A DNA stretch of 64,000 nt from Stegostoma tigrinum (taxonomy: Eukaryota): assembly GCF_030684315.1 (NCBI RefSeq), contig NC_081396.1, forward strand, positions 5,208,001 through 5,272,000, in the 5' to 3' direction. Under the pieces are notes generated by a model that worked only from the letters and a program-made list of their open reading frames with translations, made no database searches and was not told the origin of the DNA. Both the position numbers and the translations under genes were made by a program. The first letter of the stretch is position 1. Each line of letters starts with the position of its first letter. Positions 7,632 to 58,800 of this stretch are shown here, piece by piece.

Positions 7632-7659
7632 ATAGAACATAGAACATAGAACATAGAAC
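7632..7659 (-). repeat. CR1 3'-terminal microsatellite (GTTCTAT)x4
   Basis: + strand ATAGAAC x4 directly after the 3' UTR; CR1 elements end in short tandem repeats. Confidence 0.9.
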
Positions 7660-7727
7660 AGTACAGCACAGAACAGGCCCTTCAGCCCACAATGTTGTGC
7701 CGACCATTGATCCTCATGGATGCACCC

Positions 7728-10700
7728 TCAAATTTCTGTGACCATATGCATGTCCAGCAGTCTCTTAAATGACCCCAATGACCTTGCTTCCACAACTGCT
7801 GCTGGCAACGCATTCCATGCTCTCACAACTCTCTGCGTAAAGAACCTGCCTCTGACATCCCCTCTATACTTTCCACCAACCAGCTTAAAACTATGACCCC
7901 TCGTGCTAGCCATTTCTGCCCTGGGAAATAGTCTCTGGCTATCGACTCTATCAATGCCTCTCATTATCTTGTATACCTCAATTAGGTCCCCTCTCCTCCT
8001 CCTTTTCTCCAATGAAAAGAGACCGAGCTCAGTCAACCTCTCTTCATAAGATAAGCCCTCCAGTCCAGGCAGCATCCTGGTAAACCTCCTCTGAACCCTC
8101 TCCAAAGCATCCACATCTTTCCTATAATAGGGCGCCCAGAACTGGACGCAGTATTCCAAGTGCGGTCTAACCAAAGTTTTATAGAGCTGCAACAAGATCT
8201 CACGACTCTTAAACTCAATCCCCCTGTTAATGAAAGCCAAAACACCATATGCTTTCTTAACAACCCTGTCCACTTGGGTGGCCATTTTAAGGGATCTATG
8301 TATCTGCACACCAAGATCCCTCTGTTCCTCCACGCTGCCAAGAATCCTATCCTTAATCCTGTACTCAGCTTTCAAATTCGACCTTCCAAAATGCATCACC
8401 TCGCATTTATCCAGGTTGAACTCCATCTGCCACCTCTCAGCCCATCTCTGCATCCTGTCAATGTCCCGCTGCAGCCTACAACAGCCCTCTACACTGTCAA
8501 CGACACCTCCGACCTTTGTGTCGTCTGCAAACTTGCTGACCCATCCTTCAATTCCCTCGTCCAAGTCATTAATAAAAATTACAAACAGTAGAGGCCCAAG
8601 GACAGAGCCCTGTGGAACCCCACTCACCACTGACTTCCAGGCAGAATATTTTCCTTCTACTACCACACGCTGTCTTCTGTTGGCCAGCCAATTCTGTATC
8701 CAAGCAGCTAAGTTCCCCTGTATCCCATTCCTCCTGACCTTCTGAATGAGCCTTCCATGGGGAACCTTATCAAATGCCTTACTGAAGTCCATATACACCA
8801 CATCCACAGCTCGACCCTCATCAACCTTACTAGTCACATCCTCAAAAAACTCGATAAGGTTTGTAAGGCATGACCTACCCCTCACAAAGCCGTGTTGACT
8901 GTATTTGATCAAGCCATGCTCTTCCAGATGGTCATAAATCTTATCCCTCAGAATCCTTTCTAACACCTTGCAGACGACAGACGTGAGACTTACCGGTCTA
9001 TAATTGCCGGGGATTTCCCTATTTCCTTTCTTGAAGAGAGGAATTACATTTGCCTCTCTCCAGTCCTCAGGTACGACTCCAGTGGAGAGCGAGGATGCAA
9101 AGATCTTCGCAAGTGGCGAAGCAATTGCATTTCTCGCTTCCCAAAGCAGCCGAGGACAAATCTGATCCGGGCCTGGCGACTTGTCAATCTTAATGTTTGA
9201 CAAAATTTTCAGTACATCAGCTTCCTCTATCTCTATCCATTCCAGCATGCACACCTGCTCTTCAAAGGTTTCATTCACTACACAGTTCGATTCTTTCGTA
9301 AAGACAGAAGCAAAAAACTCATTTAGGGCTTCCCCTACCTCCTCAGGCTCCACACACAAGTTCCCTATGCTATCCCTGATCGGCCCTACTCTTTCTTTGA
9401 CCATTCTCTTATTCCTCACGTAAGTGTAAAATGCCTTTGTGTTTTCCCGGATTCCTTCTGCCAAGCCTTTCTCGTGCCCCCTCCTGGCTCTCCTCAGACC
9501 ATTTTTGAGCTCCTTCCTTGCCTGCATGTAATCCTCTCTAGCTGAACTTGACCCTAGCTTCCTCCACCTTATGTAAGCTACCTTCTTCCTTTTCACTAGA
9601 AGCTCCACCGCTCTCGTCATCCAAGGTTCCTTTATCTTACCCCTTCTTGCCTGTCTCAGAGGGACATATTTACTCATCACTCCCAACAACTGTTCCTTAA
9701 ACCATCTCCACATGTCTATAGTTCCCTTACCATGGAACAACTGCTCCCAGTCCATGCTTCCTAACTCGTGTCTAATCGCATCATAGTTTCCTCTTCCCCA
9801 ATTAAATATCCTCCCATTCTGCCTAATCCTCTCCTTCTCCATAGCTATGTAGAATGAGAGAGTGTTATGGTCACTATCACCAAAATGCTCTCCCACCACA
9901 AGATCTGATACCTGCCCCGGCTCGTTTCCGAGCACCAAGTCTAGAATGGCCTCTCCCCTCGTCGGCCTGTCAACGTACTGCGTTAGGAAACCCTCCTGAA
10001 CACACCTTACAAAAACAGCTCCATTCAAATCTTCTGCTCGAAGGAGGTTCCAATCAATATTAGGAAAGTTAAAGTCACCCATTACAACAACCCTACTGCG
10101 TCCACACTTTTCCAAAATCTGTCGACCTATGCTTTCTACAATCTCCCTGCTGCTATTGGGGGGCCTGTAGTAAACCCCTAACGAGGTGACTACTCCCTTG
10201 CTGTTCCTAATTTCCACCCATACTGACTCAGCAGGCAGATCTTCCTCGACAATGGAAGCTTCTGTAGCTGTGATACTCTCTCTGATTAGTAGTGCTACAC
10301 CCCCTCCTCTTTTTCCCCCCTCCCTATTCTTTTTAAATGTTCTAAACCCTGGAACATCCAGCAACCATTCCTGCCCATGAGAAACCCATGTCTCTGTTAT
10401 GGCCACAACATCATAGCACCAGGTACTGATCCATGCTCTAAGTTCATCACTTTTATTCCTGATACTCCTTGCATTAAAGCAAACACACTTTAACCGATCC
10501 CTTGGTTCCTTCCCAGGAAAATCCTTCCCACTAGCTGGTCTACCTCTTGCTACTGCCTCACCTGCATCAACGCTCACCTCTGGTATACAGCTCAGGTTCC
10601 CACCCCCCTGCCATACTAGTTTAAACCCTCTCGAACTACTCGAGCAAACCTTCCACCCAGGACATTGGTCCCCTTCCAGTTCAGATGCAACCCGTCCTTC

Positions 10701-10736
10701 TTGTACAGGTCCCACCTTCCCCAGAAGGCATCCCAA
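7728..10736 (-). CDS. CR1 ORF2: APE-like endonuclease + reverse transcriptase. No AUG before the endonuclease; probably entered at ~10619 by a -1 frameshift
   Basis: EN motifs FNARS, ITETW, GGGVAL, YRPP, GDFN, LDLV, SDH. RT motifs NYRPVSLTS, QHGF, DFSKAFD, GVPQGSVLGP, FADD. CR1-type C-terminus (RPHLEYCVQFW, RVVRAWNALP). The track start at 10736 is TTG; the first ATG is at 10082 (residue 219). Confidence 0.96.
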   Translation of the reverse strand: MGCLLGKVGPVQEGRVASELEGDQCPGWKVCSSSSRGFKLVWQGGGNLSCIPEVSVDAGEAVARGRPASGKDFPGKEPRDRLKCVCFNARSIRNKSDELRAWISTWCYDVVAITETWVSHGQEWLLDVPGFRTFKKNREGGKRGGGVALLIRESITATEASIVEEDLPAESVWVEIRNSKGVVTSLGVYYRPPNSSREIVESIGRQILEKCGRSRVVVMGDFNFPNIDWNLLRAEDLNGAVFVRCVQEGFLTQYVDRPTRGEAILDLVLGNEPGQVSDLVVGEHFGDSDHNTLSFYIAMEKERIRQNGRIFNWGRGNYDAIRHELGSMDWEQLFHGKGTIDMWRWFKEQLLGVMSKYVPLRQARRGKIKEPWMTRAVELLVKRKKVAYIRWRKLGSSSAREDYMQARKELKNGLRRARRGHEKGLAEGIRENTKAFYTYVRNKRMVKERVGPIRDSIGNLCVEPEEVGEALNEFFASVFTKESNCVVNETFEEQVCMLEWIEIEEADVLKILSNIKIDKSPGPDQICPRLLWEARNAIASPLAKIFASSLSTGVVPEDWREANVIPLFKKGNREIPGNYRPVSLTSVVCKVLERILRDKIYDHLEEHGLIKYSQHGFVRGRSCLTNLIEFFEDVTSKVDEGRAVDVVYMDFSKAFDKVPHGRLIQKVRRNGIQGNLAAWIQNWLANRRQRVVVEGKYSAWKSVVSGVPQGSVLGPLLFVIFINDLDEGIEGWVSKFADDTKVGGVVDSVEGCCRLQRDIDRMQRWAERWQMEFNLDKCEVMHFGRSNLKAEYRIKDRILGSVEEQRDLGVQIHRSLKMATQVDRVVKKAYGVLAFINRGIEFKSREILLQLYKTLVRPHLEYCVQFWAPYYRKDVDALERVQRRFTRMLPGLEGLSYEERLTELGLFSLEKRRRRGDLIEVYKIMRGIDRVDSQRLFPRAEMASTRGHSFKLVGGKYRGDVRGRFFTQRVVRAWNALPAAVVEARSLGSFKRLLDMHMVTEI

Positions 10737-11551
10737 TTATCAACATATCTGAAGCCCTCCCTCCTACACCAGCTGCGTAGCCACGTGTTCAGCTGCGCCC
10801 GCTCCCTGTTCCTCACCTCGCTATCTCGTGGCACCGGTAGTAAACCAGAGAACACTACTCTGTTCGTCCTGCTCTGCAGCTTCCATCCTAACTCCCTGAA
10901 ATCACTTTTTATATCCTCAAACCTATTTCTGGCTATATCATTTGTGCCAATATGTAACACGATTTCTGGCTGTTCACCCTCCCCTTTCAGAACTTTATAC
11001 ACCCGATCGGAGACGTCCCGGACCCTGGCACCAGGGAGGCAACATACCTTCCGGGAATCCCGATCTTGCCCACAAAATCTCCTGTCGATTCCCCTAACTA
11101 TCGAGTCCCCTACCACGAGTACTTTTCTATTCTGCCCCCTTCCCTTCTTTGCCACAGTGTCAGGCTCAGTGCGAGAGAACTGACTACTATGGCTTTCCTC
11201 TGGTAGGTCAACCCCCCCAGCAGTATCCAAAACGGTATACTTATTGCTGAGGGGAATGCCCACAGGGGATCTCTGCACTGTCTGTCTGTCCCCTTTCCTC
11301 CCCCTAACTGTAACCCATCTATCCTCGTCCTGAGCCTTAGGAGTGACCAACTCCCGATAACTCCTCTCAATTACCCCCTCAGCCTCCCGAATGATCCGTA
11401 GTTCATCCAGCTCCAGCTCCATTTCCCTAACACGGTTTTCAAGGAGCTGTAGCTGGGTGCACTTCCCGCAGATGTAGCCAGCGGAGACGTGTGCCACATC
11501 TCCCAACTGCCACATTTTGCAGGAGGAGCAAGCAACTGCCCTAGCATCCAT
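10616..11551 (-). CDS. CR1 ORF1 (311 aa): CxxC...CxxC zinc-binding N-terminus, coiled coil, SGNH/GDSL esterase domain
   Basis: ATG at 11551 (MDARAVACSSC...YICGKC), heptad segment LQLLENRVREMELELDEL, SGNH blocks GDS / PGAR / GTND / DGLH, TAG at 10616-10618. It is the first sense-strand AUG of the element. Confidence 0.92.
   Translation of the reverse strand: MDARAVACSSCKMWQLGDVAHVSAGYICGKCTQLQLLENRVREMELELDELRIIREAEGVIERSYRELVTPKAQDEDRWVTVRGRKGDRQTVQRSPVGIPLSNKYTVLDTAGGVDLPEESHSSQFSRTEPDTVAKKGRGQNRKVLVVGDSIVRGIDRRFCGQDRDSRKVCCLPGARVRDVSDRVYKVLKGEGEQPEIVLHIGTNDIARNRFEDIKSDFRELGWKLQSRTNRVVFSGLLPVPRDSEVRNRERAQLNTWLRSWCRREGFRYVDNWDAFWGRWDLYKKDGLHLNWKGTNVLGGRFARVVREGLN
10619..10628 (-). promoter_or_regulatory. 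Putative -1 programmed ribosomal frameshift site (G_GGU_UUA_AAC) at the ORF1/ORF2 junction
   Basis: ORF1 frame reads GAG GGT TTA AAC TAG. The -1 frame reads TTT AAA CTA GTA TGG CAG, which is ORF2 (FKLVWQ). Confidence 0.7.
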
Positions 11552-11752
11552 ACCCCACTTATCTGAACACCCACTCAATACTAAAGCAGAAAGCTCACTT
11601 CAAGTAATAATAACAAATTAATAACAAACTTATGTTCAATAGAGAAAGTTTAGAATGAACCTTACCTTATTAACTAGGTTAGAGGAGGAGGGCGGGTGGG
11701 AGACACTACAGTTGTAGAGTCTCGGGTTAAGCCGCCTTGCTGATATATATGG

Positions 11753-13482
11753 TCACTGCTTTCCTTCCCGGCTGCCCCTCTGGTCCTCGTCACTTCCTCT
11801 GATGCTCCCGCTCCTTCTCTGAAAGAGGAAAAAAAAACACCGCTGCCCGCTACCGGTAAGTAATTTTAAAAATAAACTGCTTTACCTTAGCTGCAGTCTT
11901 CCGGGTCCGTCTTGCCTCCGCTGCTGCTCGCACTCAAAAAGGCCGTTGGCGTCGAAGGGTGAGTATTTATACTCACTGCTTTCCTTCCCGGCTGCCCCTC
12001 TGGTCCTCGTCACTTCCTCTGATGCTCCCGCTCCTTCTCTGAAAGAGGAAAAAAAAACACCGCTGCCCGCTACCGGTAAGTAATTTTAAAAATAAACTGC
12101 TTTACCTTAGCTGCAGTCTTCCGGGTCCGTCTTGCCTCCGCTGCTGCTCGCACTCAAAAAGGCCGTTGGCGTCGAAGGGTGAGTATTTATACTCACTGCT
12201 TTCCTTCCCGGCTGCCCCTCTGGTCCTCGTCACTTCCTCTGATGCTCCCGCTCCTTCTCTGAAAGAGGAAAAAAAAACACCGCTGCCCGCTACCGGTAAG
12301 TAATTTTAAAAATAAACTGCTTTACCTTAGCTGCAGTCTTCCGGGTCCGTCTTGCCTCCGCTGCTGCTCGCACTCAAAAAGGCCGTTGGCGTCGAAGGGT
12401 GAGTATTTATACTCACTGCTTTCCTTCCCGGCTGCCCCTCTGGTCCTCGTCACTTCCTCTGATGCTCCCGCTCCTTCTCTGAAAGAGGAAAAAAAAACAC
12501 CGCTGCCCGCTACCGGTAAGTAATTTTAAAAATAAACTGCTTTACCTTAGCTGCAGTCTTCCGGGTCCGTCTTGCCTCCGCTGCTGCTCGCACTCAAAAA
12601 GGCCGTTGGCGTCGAAGGGTGAGTATTTATACTCACTGCTTTCCTTCCCGGCTGCCCCTCTGGTCCTCGTCACTTCCTCTGATGCTCCCGCTCCTTCTCT
12701 GAAAGAGAAAAAAAAAACACCGCTGCCCGCTACCGGTAAGTAATTTTAAAAATAAACTGCTTTACCTTAGCTGCAGTCTTCCGGGTCCGTCTTGCCTCCG
12801 CTGCTGCTCGCACTCAAAAAGGCCGTTGGCGTCGAAGGGTGAGTATTTATACTCACTGCTTTCCTTCCCGGCTGCCCCTCTGGTCCTCGTCACTTCCTCT
12901 GATGCTCCCGCTCCTTCTCTGAAAGAGGAAAAAAAAACACCGCTGCCCGCTACCGGTAAGTAATTTTAAAAATAAACTGCTTTACCTTAGCTGCAGTCTT
13001 CCGGGTCCGTCTTGCCTCCGCTGCTGCTCGCACTCAAAAAGGCCGTTGGCGTCGAAGGGTGAGTATTTATACTCACTGCTTTCCTTCCCGGCTGCCCCTC
13101 TGGTCCTCGTCACTTCCTCTGATGCTCCCGCTCCTTCTCTGAAAGAGGAAAAAAAAACACCGCTGCCCGCTACCGGTAAGTAATTTTAAAAATAAACTGC
13201 TTTACCTTAGCTGCAGTCTTCCGGGTCCGTCTTGCCTCCGCTGCTGCTCGCACTCAAAAAGGCCGTTGGCGTCGAAGGGTGAGTATTTATACTCACTGCT
13301 TTCCTTCCCGGCTGCCCCTCTGGTCCTCGTCACTTCCTCTGATGCTCCCGCTCCTTCTCTGAAAGAGAAAAAAAAAACACCGCTGCCCGCTACCGGTAAG
13401 TAATTTTAAAAATAAACTGCTTTACCTTAGCTGCAGTCTTCCGGGTCCGTCTTGCCTCCGCTGCTGCTCGCACTCAAAAAGG
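11753..13482 (-). repeat. Tandem array of 220-bp monomers (~7.9 copies) forming the LINE 5' UTR
   Basis: TTCCTTCCCG recurs at 11761, 11981, 12201, 12421, 12641, 12861, 13081 and 13301. The only difference seen between copies is G>A at 12708 and 13368. Confidence 0.98.
13256..13291 (-). promoter_or_regulatory. Putative core promoter of each monomer: TATAAATA followed 30 nt later by CCTTTTT (TCT/TOP-like initiator); outermost complete copy shown
   Basis: The minus strand reads GTGAG-TATAAATA-CTCACCCTTCGACGCCAACGG-CCTTTTTG. TATA starts at 11971+220n (7 copies). AGAGGAAGTGACG (ETS plus half-CRE) lies upstream and CCGGAAG downstream. Confidence 0.6.
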
Positions 13483-14899: not shown

Positions 14900-17700
14900 C
14901 TGTACCATAAGGTATGGAAGCAGAATTGGCCCATCGACTCCGCTCCATTATTCGATTATGGTTGATAAGTTTATCCATCCTATTGTCCTGTCATTTCCAG
15001 GTAACCTTTGATCCTCTGCCTAATGATGGACCTATCTATCTCTGCCATTAAAAAAAACAACTAAGGTAGTTTGCCTTGACAGTGTTCTACAAAAAAATAG
15101 TTCCATACATTCACCAGCCACTCTGGCTGAACATATCTTTCCTCATGTCAATTCTAAAAGGTTGACTTTTCACTCTGAGGCTGTGCCCTCGGGTCCTAAT
15201 CTTTCCTACTGTTGAAAAACCCTGTTCACTTCAACCCTGTCCAGGCCTCTCAGTAAGCTTAAGGAAACTCCCGTCCCATTCTTTCAAATGCCATCAAATC
15301 TAGACCCAGAATCCTCAAACATTCATCAATGTGGCAAGCCTTCCATATGCGGGACGTTTGTCATTATCCTCCTCTGGCTTCTTTCCAGCGCTAACATATA
15401 CTTACTGAAGTACACGACTCAAAGCTACCCACAATAGTTCAAGTGCGGTCAGACCGGGGCCTGAGAGAGAATCTGCAGTACATCCTTCTTTCTGCAACAA
15501 GCCCTCTTGAAATGAAATGCTAACTTTGAATTGGCCTTTTGAACTGGTGATTGAAATTGCATGTTAAGATGAGGAGAATTCCAACCGAGGACACCGAAGC
15601 CTCTATCTCTTTCACATTTCCAAGGCTTTTCCTTGTTTGGAACGCAGTGCACACCTCTGTTCTTTTTACCAAAGAGCAGAACCTCGCACTTTCCCACATT
15701 ACATTCCATCTACAAAATCTTTGCCCACTTACAGACCCTGCACAAATCCTTCTGCAACTTTCCCAGATGCCAAACACTACTTGTTTCACCAGCTGTCATT
15801 GAATCGCCGAAAATCTTCACAATAATACCGTTGGTTCCTTTGACCAGATTGTTCATAAAAAACGTGAATAGTTGCGTTCCAAAGACTAACCTCCGCAGAA
15901 CTTTAGTCGTCACCGACTGCCATTCTGAAAATGACCCCTTTATTTCAACTCTCCGTTCTGCCTCAGGCAGCTATTCTACCTGTGCCAGTACCCTGCCCAA
16001 ACGGTTGTGTTTTTATTTTAAATTTGATTAGCAACTCCTGTTCAGCTCCTTGCCAAATCGCTTCTGGAAATCCAAACAGGTCATGTCCAGTGGCTCTCCT
16101 TTGTCGAGCTTTCTCATTATCTCCTCAAAGAATTCTAACAGATCTGTCAGGAATGACCTTCACTTTGATAAAATCCCACTGACCCAGCCCTATTTTACCA
16201 TGCATTTCCAAGAACTCCATGATCCTTAATACTGAAATCTTTCAAACGATTAATGTCAGGTTAATGGGCCTATTATTTGTCGTCTTCTGACTCCTTCTAT
16301 TCTTCAAGTAAAGTGTTACATTAGCCATGTTCCAGTCGTTTCGGACTCTTCATGACTTCAGTTATTCCTGAAAGATCACCAGCAATGCCTCCACACTGTC
16401 CTCAGCTGTCATTTTCGGATGCCTCAGGTGCACTCCATTCTGGCTGGATGATTCATCCTTATTCAGATCTTTCAGCATCTCCAGCACCTTCTACTTCGTG
16501 ATGACAAGTCACTCTCGTCCGCATTCCACCCCCTCCCCCCCACCCCACACTGAGTATCTTGAGGTTCTCTTATAGCAATGCCGTCTTCCCCATTAGGATC
16601 AATGCAAAGTACTTACTCAATTTGTTCCACACTTCTATTTCTCCAGGCTCATTTTCAACTCATCAATTATCCATTGTTGATCTCAATTAACTTTTAATGT
16701 ATCTTAAAAAAACTGACATGCTTCTTCCATATTAATTACCAGCTTGCCTTCATATGTTATCTTCTCCTTCTTTATTGCTTTTTTAATTGTCCTCTGTTGT
16801 TTCTTTGTTTTAAAAATATGTCTTCACAGTCCTCTGACTTCCCACTAATCGTAAATACATTCCATGCTTTTTCTTTTGCTTTAATGCAGTCCCTAACTTT
16901 CCTTGTAAGCCATGATTGTCTCATCCTCCACTTAGTATGGCTCCCCTTCCTACGGATAATTTTCTGCTGTACCTCTGGAATTAGTCCCAGAAACAACAGC
17001 CATTGCTGTCCTATTCTCTTCCCTGCGAGACACTACTTCCAACAAGTCCTAACCGGTTCCTTCTTCATGTCTTTTTAGTTATGTTCAATCAATTCTAAGA
17101 CAGCTACATCTACTTCAAGCTACTCCCTCCCAAACTGCAAGGTGAATGCTATCATAACATGGCCAGTTACCCCTAAGTGTTTCTTCAACTGAAATGTCCT
17201 ACTCTCATCTGCCTCATTACACATCGCCAAATCGAGAATTGCCTGTTCACTAGTAGGCTATACAGCAAGCTGATCTAAAAACAACATCCTGTAGATATTC
17301 TACGGATTAGTTTTCTCGAGATTGACAACCATCACAATTTTCCCAGTTTACCTGCGTACTGAAACCCTCCATGACGATTTTAATTGTGTCGTTCTTATGT
17401 GCCTTTTCCATTTTCTGATTTATTTCTGCTCCCTAGAAAGCCTGTCCATACATTTCATGTGGGCCTTTCTTTGTTTGCTGTCTCTCCAATCTACTCACAT
17501 ATATTCTCCGCTTTCAAAAACTATATCTCTTCTTGTTCTTGGTTTAAGTTCACTTCTTATGATGAAGACAATCATGTTCCTCAGGCCATATCTTTTTCCT
17601 TTGAAAATGCCACGTATCTTTGTATCTTCCATTCCAACCCTCATTCCCTTGCAGCCACATGCCTGCGATGTCCACATGTTGACACTTAACAACTAGTCAA
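14900..17700 (-). mobile_element. Degraded CR1-type LINE (EN-RT remnant)
   Basis: Fragments VFGTQLFTFFMNNL, IVKIFGDS, WAKILXMECNVGKCEVLLFG, WLTRKVRDCIKAKEKA, with many stops. Confidence 0.85.
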
Positions 17701-21755: not shown

Positions 21756-23947
21756 TCATTTAATGCAACTGTAGAAGAACGTGTAAGGAGATATCAGCAG
21801 CTTCTTCGGTTCTTCCTGGAACTTATTCTGGGTTACTGCATAGATGAATACATTATTGCAAGAACTGAGTAACTAGAGCAGGTTGGTCGCCTCTTGCAGA
21901 ATGAATTGTGGATCATTGAAATCCAGTCCGCCAAAGTAGCCCTCCCCAGTAAACTGCACGAAGAGGAATCTCCCAACATAGGTGGCCCAAAGGAGGAGGA
22001 AGATGAGGGAAATTGTTAAGAGCAGTATAATGGACTTCTTGCGGTTGGCCAACTCAGCATCTTTGGAATTCTCAGTGCCCAGCAGTCTCTTCCAAGCTTC
22101 GCTGGCTTCTAGAATGGACCTAACAGTCAGGATGTTGAACAGGAGAATAATGAAGAAAGGGAGAAAGGGGGTTAACGTGTGGTCTAGCCATTGGTAGCTC
22201 TTCCAGACTGGCGAGATGTAATAGCTGGACTTTAAGTCACAGAACCAGGGCTTCCACTCTAGAATGTATAAGAGTTGGTGGACAAAGAAGAAAGGGACAT
22301 TCTTGACACAGCTCAGTAGACAGACTATTCCTATCACGAGTGATGCAGTTTTTTTCCGTGCAGTAGCTGGTCTTCAGACTCTGGAAACAAATAGCCACAA
22401 AACGGTCGATGGTGAAGGCCGCAGTCAGCCAAACCGAGCCATCCCGACTGATATACACAAACACAATGCCAATTCTGCACCTGGGTGTGGTGGATAGGAG
22501 GCTGTACCTAAAGTAAATGCTGCCAATCCGATTGATAATGACAGCAACGATGATGATGAAGAAATCCGTGACTGCAATTGCCAGTAAGTAGTAGGTGATA
22601 CCACGAGACAGCCCACACCTTCCTCGGGAAAGGATCAGTATTGCCACCAAATTAGCTGTGCGATACAAAAAGAGAGAAACAGTTGAAACATCAGGTGCTT
22701 CCAATCCAATCTTTTGTTGAAACTTTCATGAATGCTCTCTTATGCATAAAGCAAAACACATTTGTTCGTCATTCATACCAGGGTTAATTATTTGTCATGA
22801 AAAGAGTAATTCCAATTTTACCCTGCTAATAACTCCTTTGACCGGCCAGTCAGTCAACTGTGTTGCTGGCTTTCCAGCTTCACCACAGTGAAACATTTGC
22901 TGCTCCATGCCATTTATTACACCAAGTCCATCTATCAAAGTCTATTGTCGCTGAATACATTGTCTTTACGCCAAGTAACATCTTCGCACAATAGCAACTG
23001 ACTCCATCGACAAGTCACTCAGTCAGACCATGTAGTTGGCTTTCCCACTTAACCTCAATGGAAACATTTGCTGCTCCATGACATTTATTACATCAAGTCC
23101 TTCCATCAACATCTATTCTTGCTGAATACATTGTCTTGATGCCACGCAACACCTTCATACAATAACCTAATCTTTCAAACTTCCAAGTTCCAAATACTAT
23201 CGCGACACCCATCTCTACAGCAATCCAAAACCAACTAATATGGCAGAACACCTACTTTCTGACCTTCTGCATCTCCCTCAATTTTTTCCTCCAACAGTGT
23301 CCATGCCCAAACCTCTTTAATTCATTCCCTCAGCAGAACTCTCTCTTTTACCCTCTAGCACCGTCTTTATAACTGCAAATTTTGATAAAACTAATGATAA
23401 TATTTCTTCTTATTTAAAAGTTAACATGAAACCGAATGAACTGCTGAATAAGCAAGGAAAACTCTGCATTCACGAATCGAAACTAAAAATTACTGTTGCA
23501 CTAATCAGCGACAGCCGCATCTGGCTAATTGTTAAATCTATAATTATGCAAAATTTAAGCCTAAATTATCTATCAGCAAATGACATATGCTCAATATGAA
23601 TAATCTTGGAACTTCATTCACTTATTTCAAGAGTTTCCACAATAAATATCCATTCCATCATCACAATCACAATAGGTATCGCCAGTGGAATTAGCTAGTG
23701 CATTCAGCACCAGACATAACATGCTAGAATATTAGATAATGCATAAAATAAAGAACCCAACTGAAATCCCTGTCACTCAGAAAGTTAAATAAATTTGGCC
23801 GAATCTGAAAGAGAGGAAACAAGAATTCAGGACATTAAATATCGATGTATATTGCATTCTTAGGATCTATTACTGACCCGGAACACCAATTGCAGCAAGA
23901 AGAGGATAGCAAATACCAAAGACGGGACCATTCGCTGGCCCGTGCAT
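21756..23947 (-). pseudogene. GPR139-like class A GPCR pseudogene (exon 1 23878-23947; exon 2 21756-22655)
   Basis: Exon 1 encodes MHGPANGPVFGICYPLLAAIGVP with a phase-1 GTCAGT donor. Acceptor CACAG at 22656. Exon 2 has NLVAILILSRGRCGLS, TIDRF and NVFIYA. Lesions: one extra base in an A7 run (22349-22355) and an in-frame TAG at 21873-21875. Confidence 0.92.
22847..23165. repeat. Diverged two-copy tandem duplication (~171-bp period) in a GPCR intron
   Basis: GAAACATTTGCTGCTCCATG at 22890 and 23061, with colinear similarity on both sides. Confidence 0.9.
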
Positions 23948-55802: not shown

Positions 55803-58800
55803 TCATTTAAGAAATCGACGCAATGGATATTTCAGCCCATTCTTTAACTCGACTCTGAATTTGTTCTGGGATCCAGCATAAATAAATGGGTTGATGCAGG
55901 AACACAAAAATAAAAACATAAATCCATTTTCCTCGAGGATAAAAGTCGATTCACTGAAATCTGAACCAGAGAAGTAGGAAACTTTTGCAATTTGGACATA
56001 GAGAATCGTTATAAAAAATAAGAAATACAACAAGAGGAAACTGCCTGATATGGCAAAGAGTAAAACAATGGACTTCCTCCGCTTCTCGATCTCTTGGTCA
56101 TTCTGATTCTCTCCGTGGCTCTGGGCCCTGAGTCTCCTCCTGGCTCTATTGGCCACGAGAATATATCGAACGGTCAAAGCATTTAACAGTAAAATCAGAA
56201 CGAAGGGGAGAAGAGGGTTGAAAATGCAACGAATTAAATCATATGCGATCCATGCAGGTGACAGATAAAATATTAACTTTGGCTTGCAGAACCAGGGTAC
56301 ATTGTTAAATGTGTACAGAGGTTCATATATAAAATACGAAAATGCACTTTTTATAGTGCACAAAGCAGACACGATTCCTGTGACGCATGTTGCTGTCTTC
56401 TTGGTGCAGTATTTTATCTTCAGTTTCTGACATGAAATCACGACAAATCGATCAAAGGTGAAAGTAACAGTTAACCAAGTAGAGCTGTCGACGGCAGTGG
56501 AAGTTAAGACAGTACGGAGACTGCACACCGGAGTGATGGACAGGAAACTGTATGGGAAATAAATCCCAGCAATCCGGTTTAGTATTACAGAGGTGACCAG
56601 GACCAAGATATCTGACACCGCCATGGACACCAGGTAACAAATCATACACCTAGAGAGACCGCATCTTTTTTGAGACAGGATCGCAATCACAGTCAAATTA
56701 GCTGTAAAAGAAAGATGGAGGCAGAGATAAAAACAGGCGAATTACTTTATCAACTTGCATCAAAATTGTCCATTTTACTAGATTCTCTTTGAAGCACATA
56801 ACTTTATGATATTGTATACATTGCACGAAATGTAATGGTAATTGCTTTTTAAAGCAATATCCAGATTAAAAGCATATGTATTTATGGTATAAGTTACAAA
56901 GTATTTTGTTGGGTTTTTAGTAGAGACAAAGAATAATTCTAATTGTGTCAAGTATATAGAAAATAGAGTAAGGGAAGCAGAAAAAAAATACAGCAGCAAA
57001 ACATTACAGAAAATATTGAAGTTGTCAAATATTAAAACGATCATGAACGAGTGAGGACATTTTCAGGAACACGGTCAACAGCTCATTGAGGATCAAATCT
57101 GGTGCCTTATAATAAAATATGGTGCCATTATTCACTGTTGTGAATGTCAGCAATTTATTTTCAAAGATAGATCCTGAAACATACGGAGGTGTGTGACCAG
57201 TATATATTTCTCTCAGTTCTGGAAAGAAACTTGGGCAGCTGTGGAATGATAGCAACATGTTCTTCTGCTTATAGGAAGGATGTTATTAACATGGACAGGA
57301 TTCAGAAGAGATTTATCAAGATGTCGTTGGGAACTGATGCGTTTAATGACAAGGATAGGCTGCATAGGCTAGGACCTTTATTACTGAAGCGTCTGAAGTT
57401 GAGGCGTGACCTTATAGAGATTTATAAAATAATGCCAGTTATTAATAAGGAGAATAGCAAGTGTCTTTTCACTAGGATGGTCAATTTCAAAACCAGAGTA
57501 ATATTTTAACAGTGAAAGCAGAAGAATGTACAAAAGGATATGATGGGCATTTCTTTTACACCATGATTGATTCTTGTGTGGAATGAACTTCCAGAGGAAG
57601 TGATAGGCACAGATACAGTTACAATGTTTAAAAGACGTTGAGATACGTACATGAATAAAAAGTGATTGTACGGAATTGGGGCAAACGCAGGCAGGTGGGA
57701 CTACTTTCGTTTGGCATGATGGTGGGCATGGGCTGGTTGGACCATAGGATCTGTTTCCACATTGTAAGATTCTATGACTCCATCATGAGAGTGAAGACTT
57801 TCGACATTCAGTCCTGACACGCTGGGAATCAATACAGTAAATTGTATCTTCTCTGAATTGTTTCCAAATTATTTATAACATTCCTTAAGAAAGGAAACCA
57901 CTGCTGTGTGCAGTCATTCATATGTAGTCTCACAAAGTCCTTCATAACTGAATCATAACCAGCCTGCATTTGAATTCAATTTTTTTCATAAGAAACAATT
58001 ATGTTTAGCCCACTTTCCAATTTCCTGAATGCATCTGCACACTAGCCAACTTTTACACAGTTTTGTGATATTTGGTTAAGTCTGTTAATATTTTTGGCTT
58101 CTTCAGTACACTATAGAGTGTAGATCCTCTTCTTGGAATATTAATTTCGGCTTAGGATGTATCTGCCCTCTTCTTTCTGTTCTCCAACGTTCCCTTGAAG
58201 GTCTATTGTTACATCGTTATTCAGGTATCCTTTGTTAGAATTGGCCAGTTCAGTGACGAGAAGGACATTCATGTCATGATTCTACTTATTTCAGTTTCAA
58301 AGTGTAGATGTAGACCTATTCTTCTCTGCCCTAAACTGAAGGTAAAATGCAATCACATTACGATCCCTATAAAGCCGACATTATGGTGTCAATAATTAAG
58401 TCAATCTTGCTGAAGAATACACCCTTCTGCCAGCTCCATGACTGAATCTAGAAAAGGCTCAGAATCTATCCAAAAAACATTCGATGAGCTCCCAATCCAA
58501 GCTCTTTTTTTTCTCATTTGACTTTTCGAGTCTCTTGAAGATATGCCCAAAGTTCTCAGATAATCTGTAGATACTGATCAAGATGGCGATAATTCAAGAT
58601 ATTAGAAGCTCCTTGCAGTAGTAAGAAATTCTGCCTCAGCGAATATCAAATTAGAAGCATCAGCAACATTGAATGTGTAAGGGCAGAGTTGAGCTGAAAA
58701 ACCAGAGCTTGAAAACAGAAAATAAAACTGCTCTGTGTTTCGGAGCAAGTGGCAAACAACCATCCTGGAGAACCAAACCTACATGTATTTTATATCAGCT

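Follow-up and report, generated by a model that had tools for sequence, protein, structure and literature searches.

A short, probable and weakly used intron repeated in the likely 5' promoter units of a CR1-type LINE of Stegostoma tigrinum

Does a retrotransposon that displays the signals of an intron in every one of its 5' repeats actually splice them, and how would such an intron persist in an element copied from RNA? The question is raised by a young, intact LINE on the minus strand of the window (the entire 64,000-nt stretch of DNA that was analyzed), which consists of a monomer array, a tether, ORF1, ORF2 and a microsatellite tail. The array (11753..13481), delineated by repeat and pattern searches, comprises eight 220-bp monomers, the last one incomplete; TRF reports a period of 220, 7.9 copies and 99% matches, and the element starts with monomer position +1, at 13481. 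A non-repeated tether of about 200 nt (11552..11752, minus strand), with a donor-like AAG/GTAAGG near 11665, leads from the array to ORF1. The latter (10616..11551, minus strand; 311 aa) has a Cys-rich N-terminus followed by an SGNH/GDSL esterase (PF13472, E 1.4e-13; PDB 4c1b_A, E 2.2e-28), and the ORF2 frame (7728..10736, minus strand; 1002 aa from stop to stop) specifies an APE endonuclease and a reverse transcriptase (PF03372, PF00078). A domain search found no match to a GIY-YIG endonuclease in the element, the APE domain being present instead. The 3' end is formed by a (GTTCTAT)n microsatellite without poly(A) (7632..7660, minus strand), and a short tandem repeat tail in place of poly(A) is a CR1 feature. 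Together, the esterase ORF1 and the microsatellite tail set the element apart from the L1 clade. The whole fits a CR1-type LINE, a label drawn from the ORF1 and ORF2 domains and the tail. Within the tether, the stretch at 11660-11752 has a degenerate TATA region at its start and a donor-like end and resembles an old monomer. Upstream of the element, at about 14900-16000 of the minus strand, a decayed older CR1-like 3' fragment can be made out by eye.

An earlier note on this DNA had described a textbook 67-nt GT..AG intron in each monomer. Such a segment is indeed found in all eight, on the minus strand: at 11885-11819 in the last monomer, where it is delimited by its precise loss in other copies, and at 12105-12039, 12325-12259, 12545-12479, 12765-12699, 12985-12919, 13205-13139 and 13425-13359 in the other seven, always flanked by AAG/GTAAAG and TTTCAG/AG; the eight near-identical introns count as one observation, not eight. 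GT/AG ends and a pyrimidine tract are present, yet the word textbook goes too far: on splice-site scoring the donor matches only six of nine consensus positions and lacks +5G and +6T. The C/T change at 13368 and 12708 is, as had been stated, the sole difference between monomers; it lies at the edge of a freely length-varying T run. Across 96 monomers the T run is variable and intron length ranges from 62 to 69 nt. A TACTTAC motif begins at intron base 24. Its A is 28 nt away from the donor and 38 nt away from the acceptor, and the latter interval contains two AGs (36 and 43). When a donor of at least 6/9 consensus and a pyrimidine-rich YAG 55-110 nt away were sought together, criteria that were fixed after inspection of the sequence, such a pair arose by chance in 6 of 3000 shuffled monomers and in 3 of 547 tiles of the window. 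The second strong donor that the note had placed at the TATA, GCA/GTGAGT, fared less well, being present in seven of eight units, scoring 6/9 and joined to the acceptor in none of the genomic junctions.

The bases around the branch-point-like motif may serve more than one purpose. TACTTAC is the reverse complement of a plus-strand donor, CCG/GTAAGT, that is stronger (8/9) than the one used on the sense strand. The ACTTACC at 11855..11861 thus reads as a branch-point-like sequence on the minus strand and as a strong donor on the plus strand, with a plus-strand AATAAA at 11871 downstream of it. Each monomer carries two such antisense donors (8/9 and 7/9) on the plus strand (11855-11876 and repeats), the AATAAA falling about 15 nt after the first, and these bases may possibly serve an antisense transcription unit or some other antisense function. 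On the minus strand, folding predicts that ACTTACC pairs with the donor (P about 0.9); 12 of 150 shuffles reach the same value and local folding of the donor region is no better than that of shuffles (z -0.76), so that a donor-sequestering hairpin is possibly at work but is a weak lead. An Rfam search gave no match at gathering score; a microRNA match in it was rejected as weak (E 0.095).

Are these signals kept where monomers have diverged? In older copies and in relatives, a GT donor and a YAG acceptor recur at the same places, with differing letters. Copies of greater age in the same genome (93-94% body identity) possess two strong donors, along with a T tract that is shorter. The older of these donors has changed from GT to GC in the youngest subfamily (at about 11915 in the window, minus strand, inside the first exon), whose donor in use lacks the +5G of older copies. 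The same monomer appears in six contig sets, presumed to derive from RNA, of three related organisms, with GTGAGA, GTGACA, GTAAGA, GTAAAA or GTAAAG in place of the donor and an acceptor, displaced by two bases, that in most cases reads CACAG; in one contig the AG is missing there. One X2 contig (depth 19.5) looks like a product of splicing at the older donor, apart from two changed letters, and none of the joints listed for the six sets falls at the window's own junction. These contigs may include DNA and are given little weight. Donors of the GTGA type seen in relatives are absent from the element's own genome, where only six private GTTA/GTCA variants, in two arrays, depart from the pattern. 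The array sample described below (C1-C3) was picked by donor pattern and is thus uninformative on donor conservation.

Intron-less monomers, a search for which the earlier note had proposed as a check, do occur elsewhere in the 3.2 Gb genome. A BLAST search with the last monomer revealed copies whose first unit passes directly from exon to exon, and a pattern search found 36 exact junctions, as against none for the reversed-pattern control. Allowing up to three mismatches raises the number to 42, the six added being all in one cluster; unspliced donor matches number 878. Of the 42 junctions, 33 belong to a single amplified cluster (C31) with a common 5' flank, and the C496 and C592 copies also have common flanks. 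Merging the cluster and the pair leaves nine independent insertions that lack the intron. Written 5' to 3', with S for a spliced and U for an unspliced unit, these read S,U,U (two cases), S (three cases), S,U (C31), U,S,U, 17 nt+S,U,U and 18 nt+S. One further intron-less copy with an imprecise 5' junction (L030) was left out of the count. The eight non-cluster copies, retrieved in their entirety, are full-length and differ in their flanks; ORF1 is open in all eight, the full ORF2 frame is present in six, and short target duplications border seven (three recognized by eye; one flank ambiguous). The C31 cluster (375000-455000 and 706000-768000; L138, L140) comprises about 33 copies of a 5' fragment, made of a spliced and an unspliced unit, inside a larger tandem cluster, and the order S,S,U occurs in some of its units, alongside S,U. 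For comparison, we sampled all arrays behind the first 100 donor matches listed (C1-C3; 63 arrays, 107 donor-bearing units). Scaling to the 878 matches gives roughly 500-550 arrays genome-wide, about 1-2% of them spliced.

How the 67 nt came to be lost can be read from the distribution of the junctions. On a tree of 74 out of 90 rows, built from 900 nt that span tether and ORF1 (the C31 copies and 16 rows with fewer than 800 aligned bases being left out), the eight spliced rows need six changes, at least four of them forced; a single origin for the spliced copies appeared in 0% of bootstraps and was rejected. The precise junction is found in 41 of 44 shortened monomers. Four other deletions in the segment occur once each, and two of these share their starting GT with the intron but stop at the inner AGs (36 and 43 nt); they may be cryptic splices or slips. 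One could suppose that splicing plays no part and that reverse-transcriptase slippage or DNA repair made microhomology deletions across AG..AG. An AG (2 nt) is in fact common to both sides of the junction, and there are deletions whose ends lie in T runs or in the two donor-like motifs (L147, L148). Yet the same junction arose nine times in separate lineages while every other deletion arose once, a 3-nt AAG match five bases further on was used nowhere in the genome, and a genome pattern search for neighboring junctions of equal or longer microhomology, or with shifted acceptors, returned none; we hold this explanation to be highly unlikely. The recurrence of one junction in separate lineages, set against single occurrences of the other deletions, argues for genuine splicing followed by retrotransposition, and the 67-nt segment is very probably a genuine spliceosomal intron, the record of which lies in DNA. 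Genome pattern searches found no spliced junction from the tether donor to the ORF1 start region, none from the older donor to the acceptor and, with an exact pattern, no older-donor-only monomer. One older-donor-only unit among the shortened monomers is a deletion in an older array and was not taken for a splice product. Single-intron and cross-monomer splicing leave the same trace in genomic copies.

The position of the intron gains meaning from the site at which the element is likely to start. Among the 63 sampled arrays, 42 begin at monomer +1 to +7. A 56-nt first exon (11886..11941, minus strand) would begin at this putative transcription start, the C of CTTTTT, with the intron opening 56 nt downstream and the TATA of the upstream unit at -30. 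This TATA belongs to a 97-nt second exon (11942..12038, minus strand), which, judging from the pile-up of 5' ends, is the likely promoter for the next monomer. It also holds GGAAGTGACG (12017-12008, minus strand), a motif that may be ETS/CRE-like. The TATA itself, TATAAATA (11971-11964), sits in an 18-bp palindrome (11959..11976, minus strand) that lies 30 nt upstream of the putative start, is present in seven of the eight units, folds well (z -3.16) and is retained in related organisms. In 10 of 18 copies an intact CTTTTT is preceded by a G where the array has a C (p 0.0009-0.005). This G is read as a copied cap, although in two copies it falls within the target duplication; copying of the cap at the 5' end is established for L1. 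Lengthened T runs at the CTTTTT start, suggestive of 5'-end slippage, were seen at 14 of 82 5' junctions (L005, L008, L077, L084, L113). From the pile-up of insertion ends, the monomer is likely to be a promoter cassette made up of a start, a 56-nt exon, an intron and the promoter for the next unit. Arrays of a single unit, which make up 30 of the 42 that are complete at the start, have no upstream TATA, and arrays must therefore regrow. They reach 11 units. Private variants shared between neighboring units suggest that units have been duplicated; so does the S,S,U order found next to S,U in the C31 cluster, in that case at the DNA level. In one array (L081:1797-2535), three normal units are followed downstream by four monomers of 185 bp, from which the TATA and the start region, though not the intron, are missing.

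The spliced units tend to lie at the 5' end. Six of nine are placed exactly at the putative start, as compared with 39% of unspliced units, a difference that on this strict count falls short of significance (p=0.09). In two further copies (L134, L136) only 17-18 nt precede the usual start, the sequence beginning at the base of the hairpin predicted for the TATA, a starting point found in none of 21 other unspliced starts; if these are counted as 5'-most, the proportion becomes eight of nine (p=0.003, post hoc). The last unit is spliced in none of the five multi-unit events. In one copy it is the middle unit that is spliced (U,S,U), which may reflect splicing of an inner intron or a switch of template; introns one and three of this copy differ from each other, an observation that does not decide for or against a template switch. 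The cap-binding complex is described as stimulating splicing of the cap-proximal intron (PMC5368414), an effect that would explain the 5' bias.

Taken together, these observations make it probable that the 67-nt segment is a genuine but weakly used intron, placed 56 nt behind the likely start in a repeated CR1 promoter cassette, which most copied RNAs keep and about 1-2% of arrays have lost precisely. The 3' half of each monomer would promote transcription from the first base of the next, so that each round would cost a copy at least one working unit and tandem units would be needed. The intron would travel with the element, intact monomers being products of unspliced RNA. What probably limits splicing is the moderate donor, the short spacing and, possibly, the pairing of the donor with ACTTACC, and the cap-proximal unit is probably favored. 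Loss of the intron from the first unit leaves the TATA, the downstream monomers and the ORFs intact and is likely to carry little cost. The earlier note's proposal that unspliced RNA is the template for retrotransposition thus stands as the usual case, with 878 unspliced donor matches. Its suggestion of a division between a spliced, translated mRNA and an unspliced genomic RNA, taken as exclusive, is not supported, since spliced RNA has been retrotransposed with intact ORFs and there is no upstream ATG for splicing to remove. The 5' region holds no ATG upstream of the ORF and the whole element only one sense-strand AATAAA, which would leave U1 sites little to protect from early polyadenylation; neither removal of upstream ORFs nor protection against polyadenylation has an evident target.

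What, if anything, the intron does for the element is less clear. In Penelope, a 75-bp intron lies 46 bp downstream of the start, most transcripts are spliced and removal of the intron abolishes reporter protein, according to Schostak et al. (2008, PMC2377424). The layout is the same here, and ends resembling splice sites are still found in older copies and in relatives, although the letters next to them change. That the intron aids expression as in Penelope is for us a tentative idea, short of an even chance. A full equivalence, with most transcripts spliced, export or translation helped and the unspliced minority preferentially copied, seems rather unlikely: spliced RNA is a competent template here, splicing removes no upstream ATG, the youngest subfamily has turned the older donor from GT to GC and uses a donor without +5G, and the contigs of relatives list mostly unspliced forms (a weak point, as these are contigs only). 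Conversely, the splice sites might be accidental, their motifs being kept for promoter or antisense roles at the DNA level and splicing being a leak, whether harmless or harmful, of the kind proposed for the SpIREs of L1. These make up about 2% of full-length human L1 copies, as given by Larson et al. (2018, PMC5860796), a figure that the 1-2% rate matches; the same bases hold stronger plus-strand donors and a polyadenylation signal, and donors weaken in the youngest subfamily. Against accident speak the presence in every monomer of a donor, a long pyrimidine tract and a YAG at first-intron distance (6 of 3000 shuffles) and the persistence of the signals across species, with letter changes that stay within consensus. 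We give this reading a sizable chance, if below one half. It overlaps the weakly used intron that we favor and differs from it only in denying a selected role.

Comparison with known systems places the element close to several and within none. As with SpIREs (PMC5860796), splicing within the 5' UTR has left retrotransposed genomic copies, and the L1 donor is likewise mostly unused, structural sequestration having been proposed; the hallmark of a SpIRE, a spliced junction in a copy with insertion hallmarks, is found here. The present case differs in that it concerns a CR1 element with a 67-nt intron per promoter unit, whereas L1 undergoes a cryptic cut of 500-900 nt as described there. Since loss would keep the TATA and the downstream monomers, copies of the S,U,U type need not be dead ends. 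Penelope (PMC2377424, PMC8557442 and PMC3846280) similarly has a short intron in its promoter region, retained in genomic copies and with sites conserved across species. That class, however, is described as having a GIY-YIG endonuclease and pseudo-LTRs, and here intron-less genomic copies exist. Mouse L1 resembles the present array in its tandem units of about 200 bp and a tether before ORF1, with a common 5' end marking the start (PMC6454616 and PMC9022269), the latter trait being seen here in 42 of 63 arrays. Older copies here carry GCCATTTT at the start, one base off the YY1 motif of mouse L1, GCCATCTT, and arrays regrow there too, by mechanisms left open (PMC6454616). The present array departs from mouse L1 in having an intron in every unit and a TATA positioned at -30, within the unit upstream; the string "splic" is absent from the main text of PMC6454616. 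The element works like a SpIRE former, yet it belongs to none of the SpIRE L1, Penelope and mouse L1 families.

Within its own group, a survey of vertebrate CR1 elements (2026, PMC13343379) describes an esterase ORF1 and an APE-plus-RT ORF2 as found here, and notes 5' repeating subunits of 100-500 bp. Those subunits occur in ORF1-less elements, one to five per array, whereas ORF1 is present here; "splic", "promoter" and "monomer" do not appear in that text. PMC2734521 mentions splicing for its reporter only. Searches of the openly accessible literature found no report of a CR1 5' intron. The findings would extend spliced L1 copies and the retained promoter intron of Penelope to CR1, a dominant vertebrate retrotransposon group, in a new layout with one intron per promoter unit. 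Because a genomic copy reveals which of its units are spliced and which are not, they offer a natural marker for the question of array regeneration raised for mouse L1 (PMC6454616). On the practical side, intron-less CR1 units in RNA-seq data need a DNA control, because 42 such junctions reside in the genome.

One could go further and envision that only the cap-proximal intron is spliced, so that an intron-less unit marks the 5' end of the RNA. The three copies with sequence before this mark (one whole unit in one case and, in the others, 17 and 18 nt that stop at the base of the TATA hairpin) would then record a jump of the reverse transcriptase that takes it off the capped end and onto a monomer boundary further inside, adding promoter units, and a conserved Penelope-like aid to expression would have evolved independently in CR1. 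We regard this scheme as quite unlikely; were it true, the intron would be a built-in tag of how LINE promoter arrays regrow.

Elsewhere in the window, at 55803-56741 and 21873-22725 of the minus strand, open frames resemble, by eye, seven-transmembrane receptor genes or fragments thereof.
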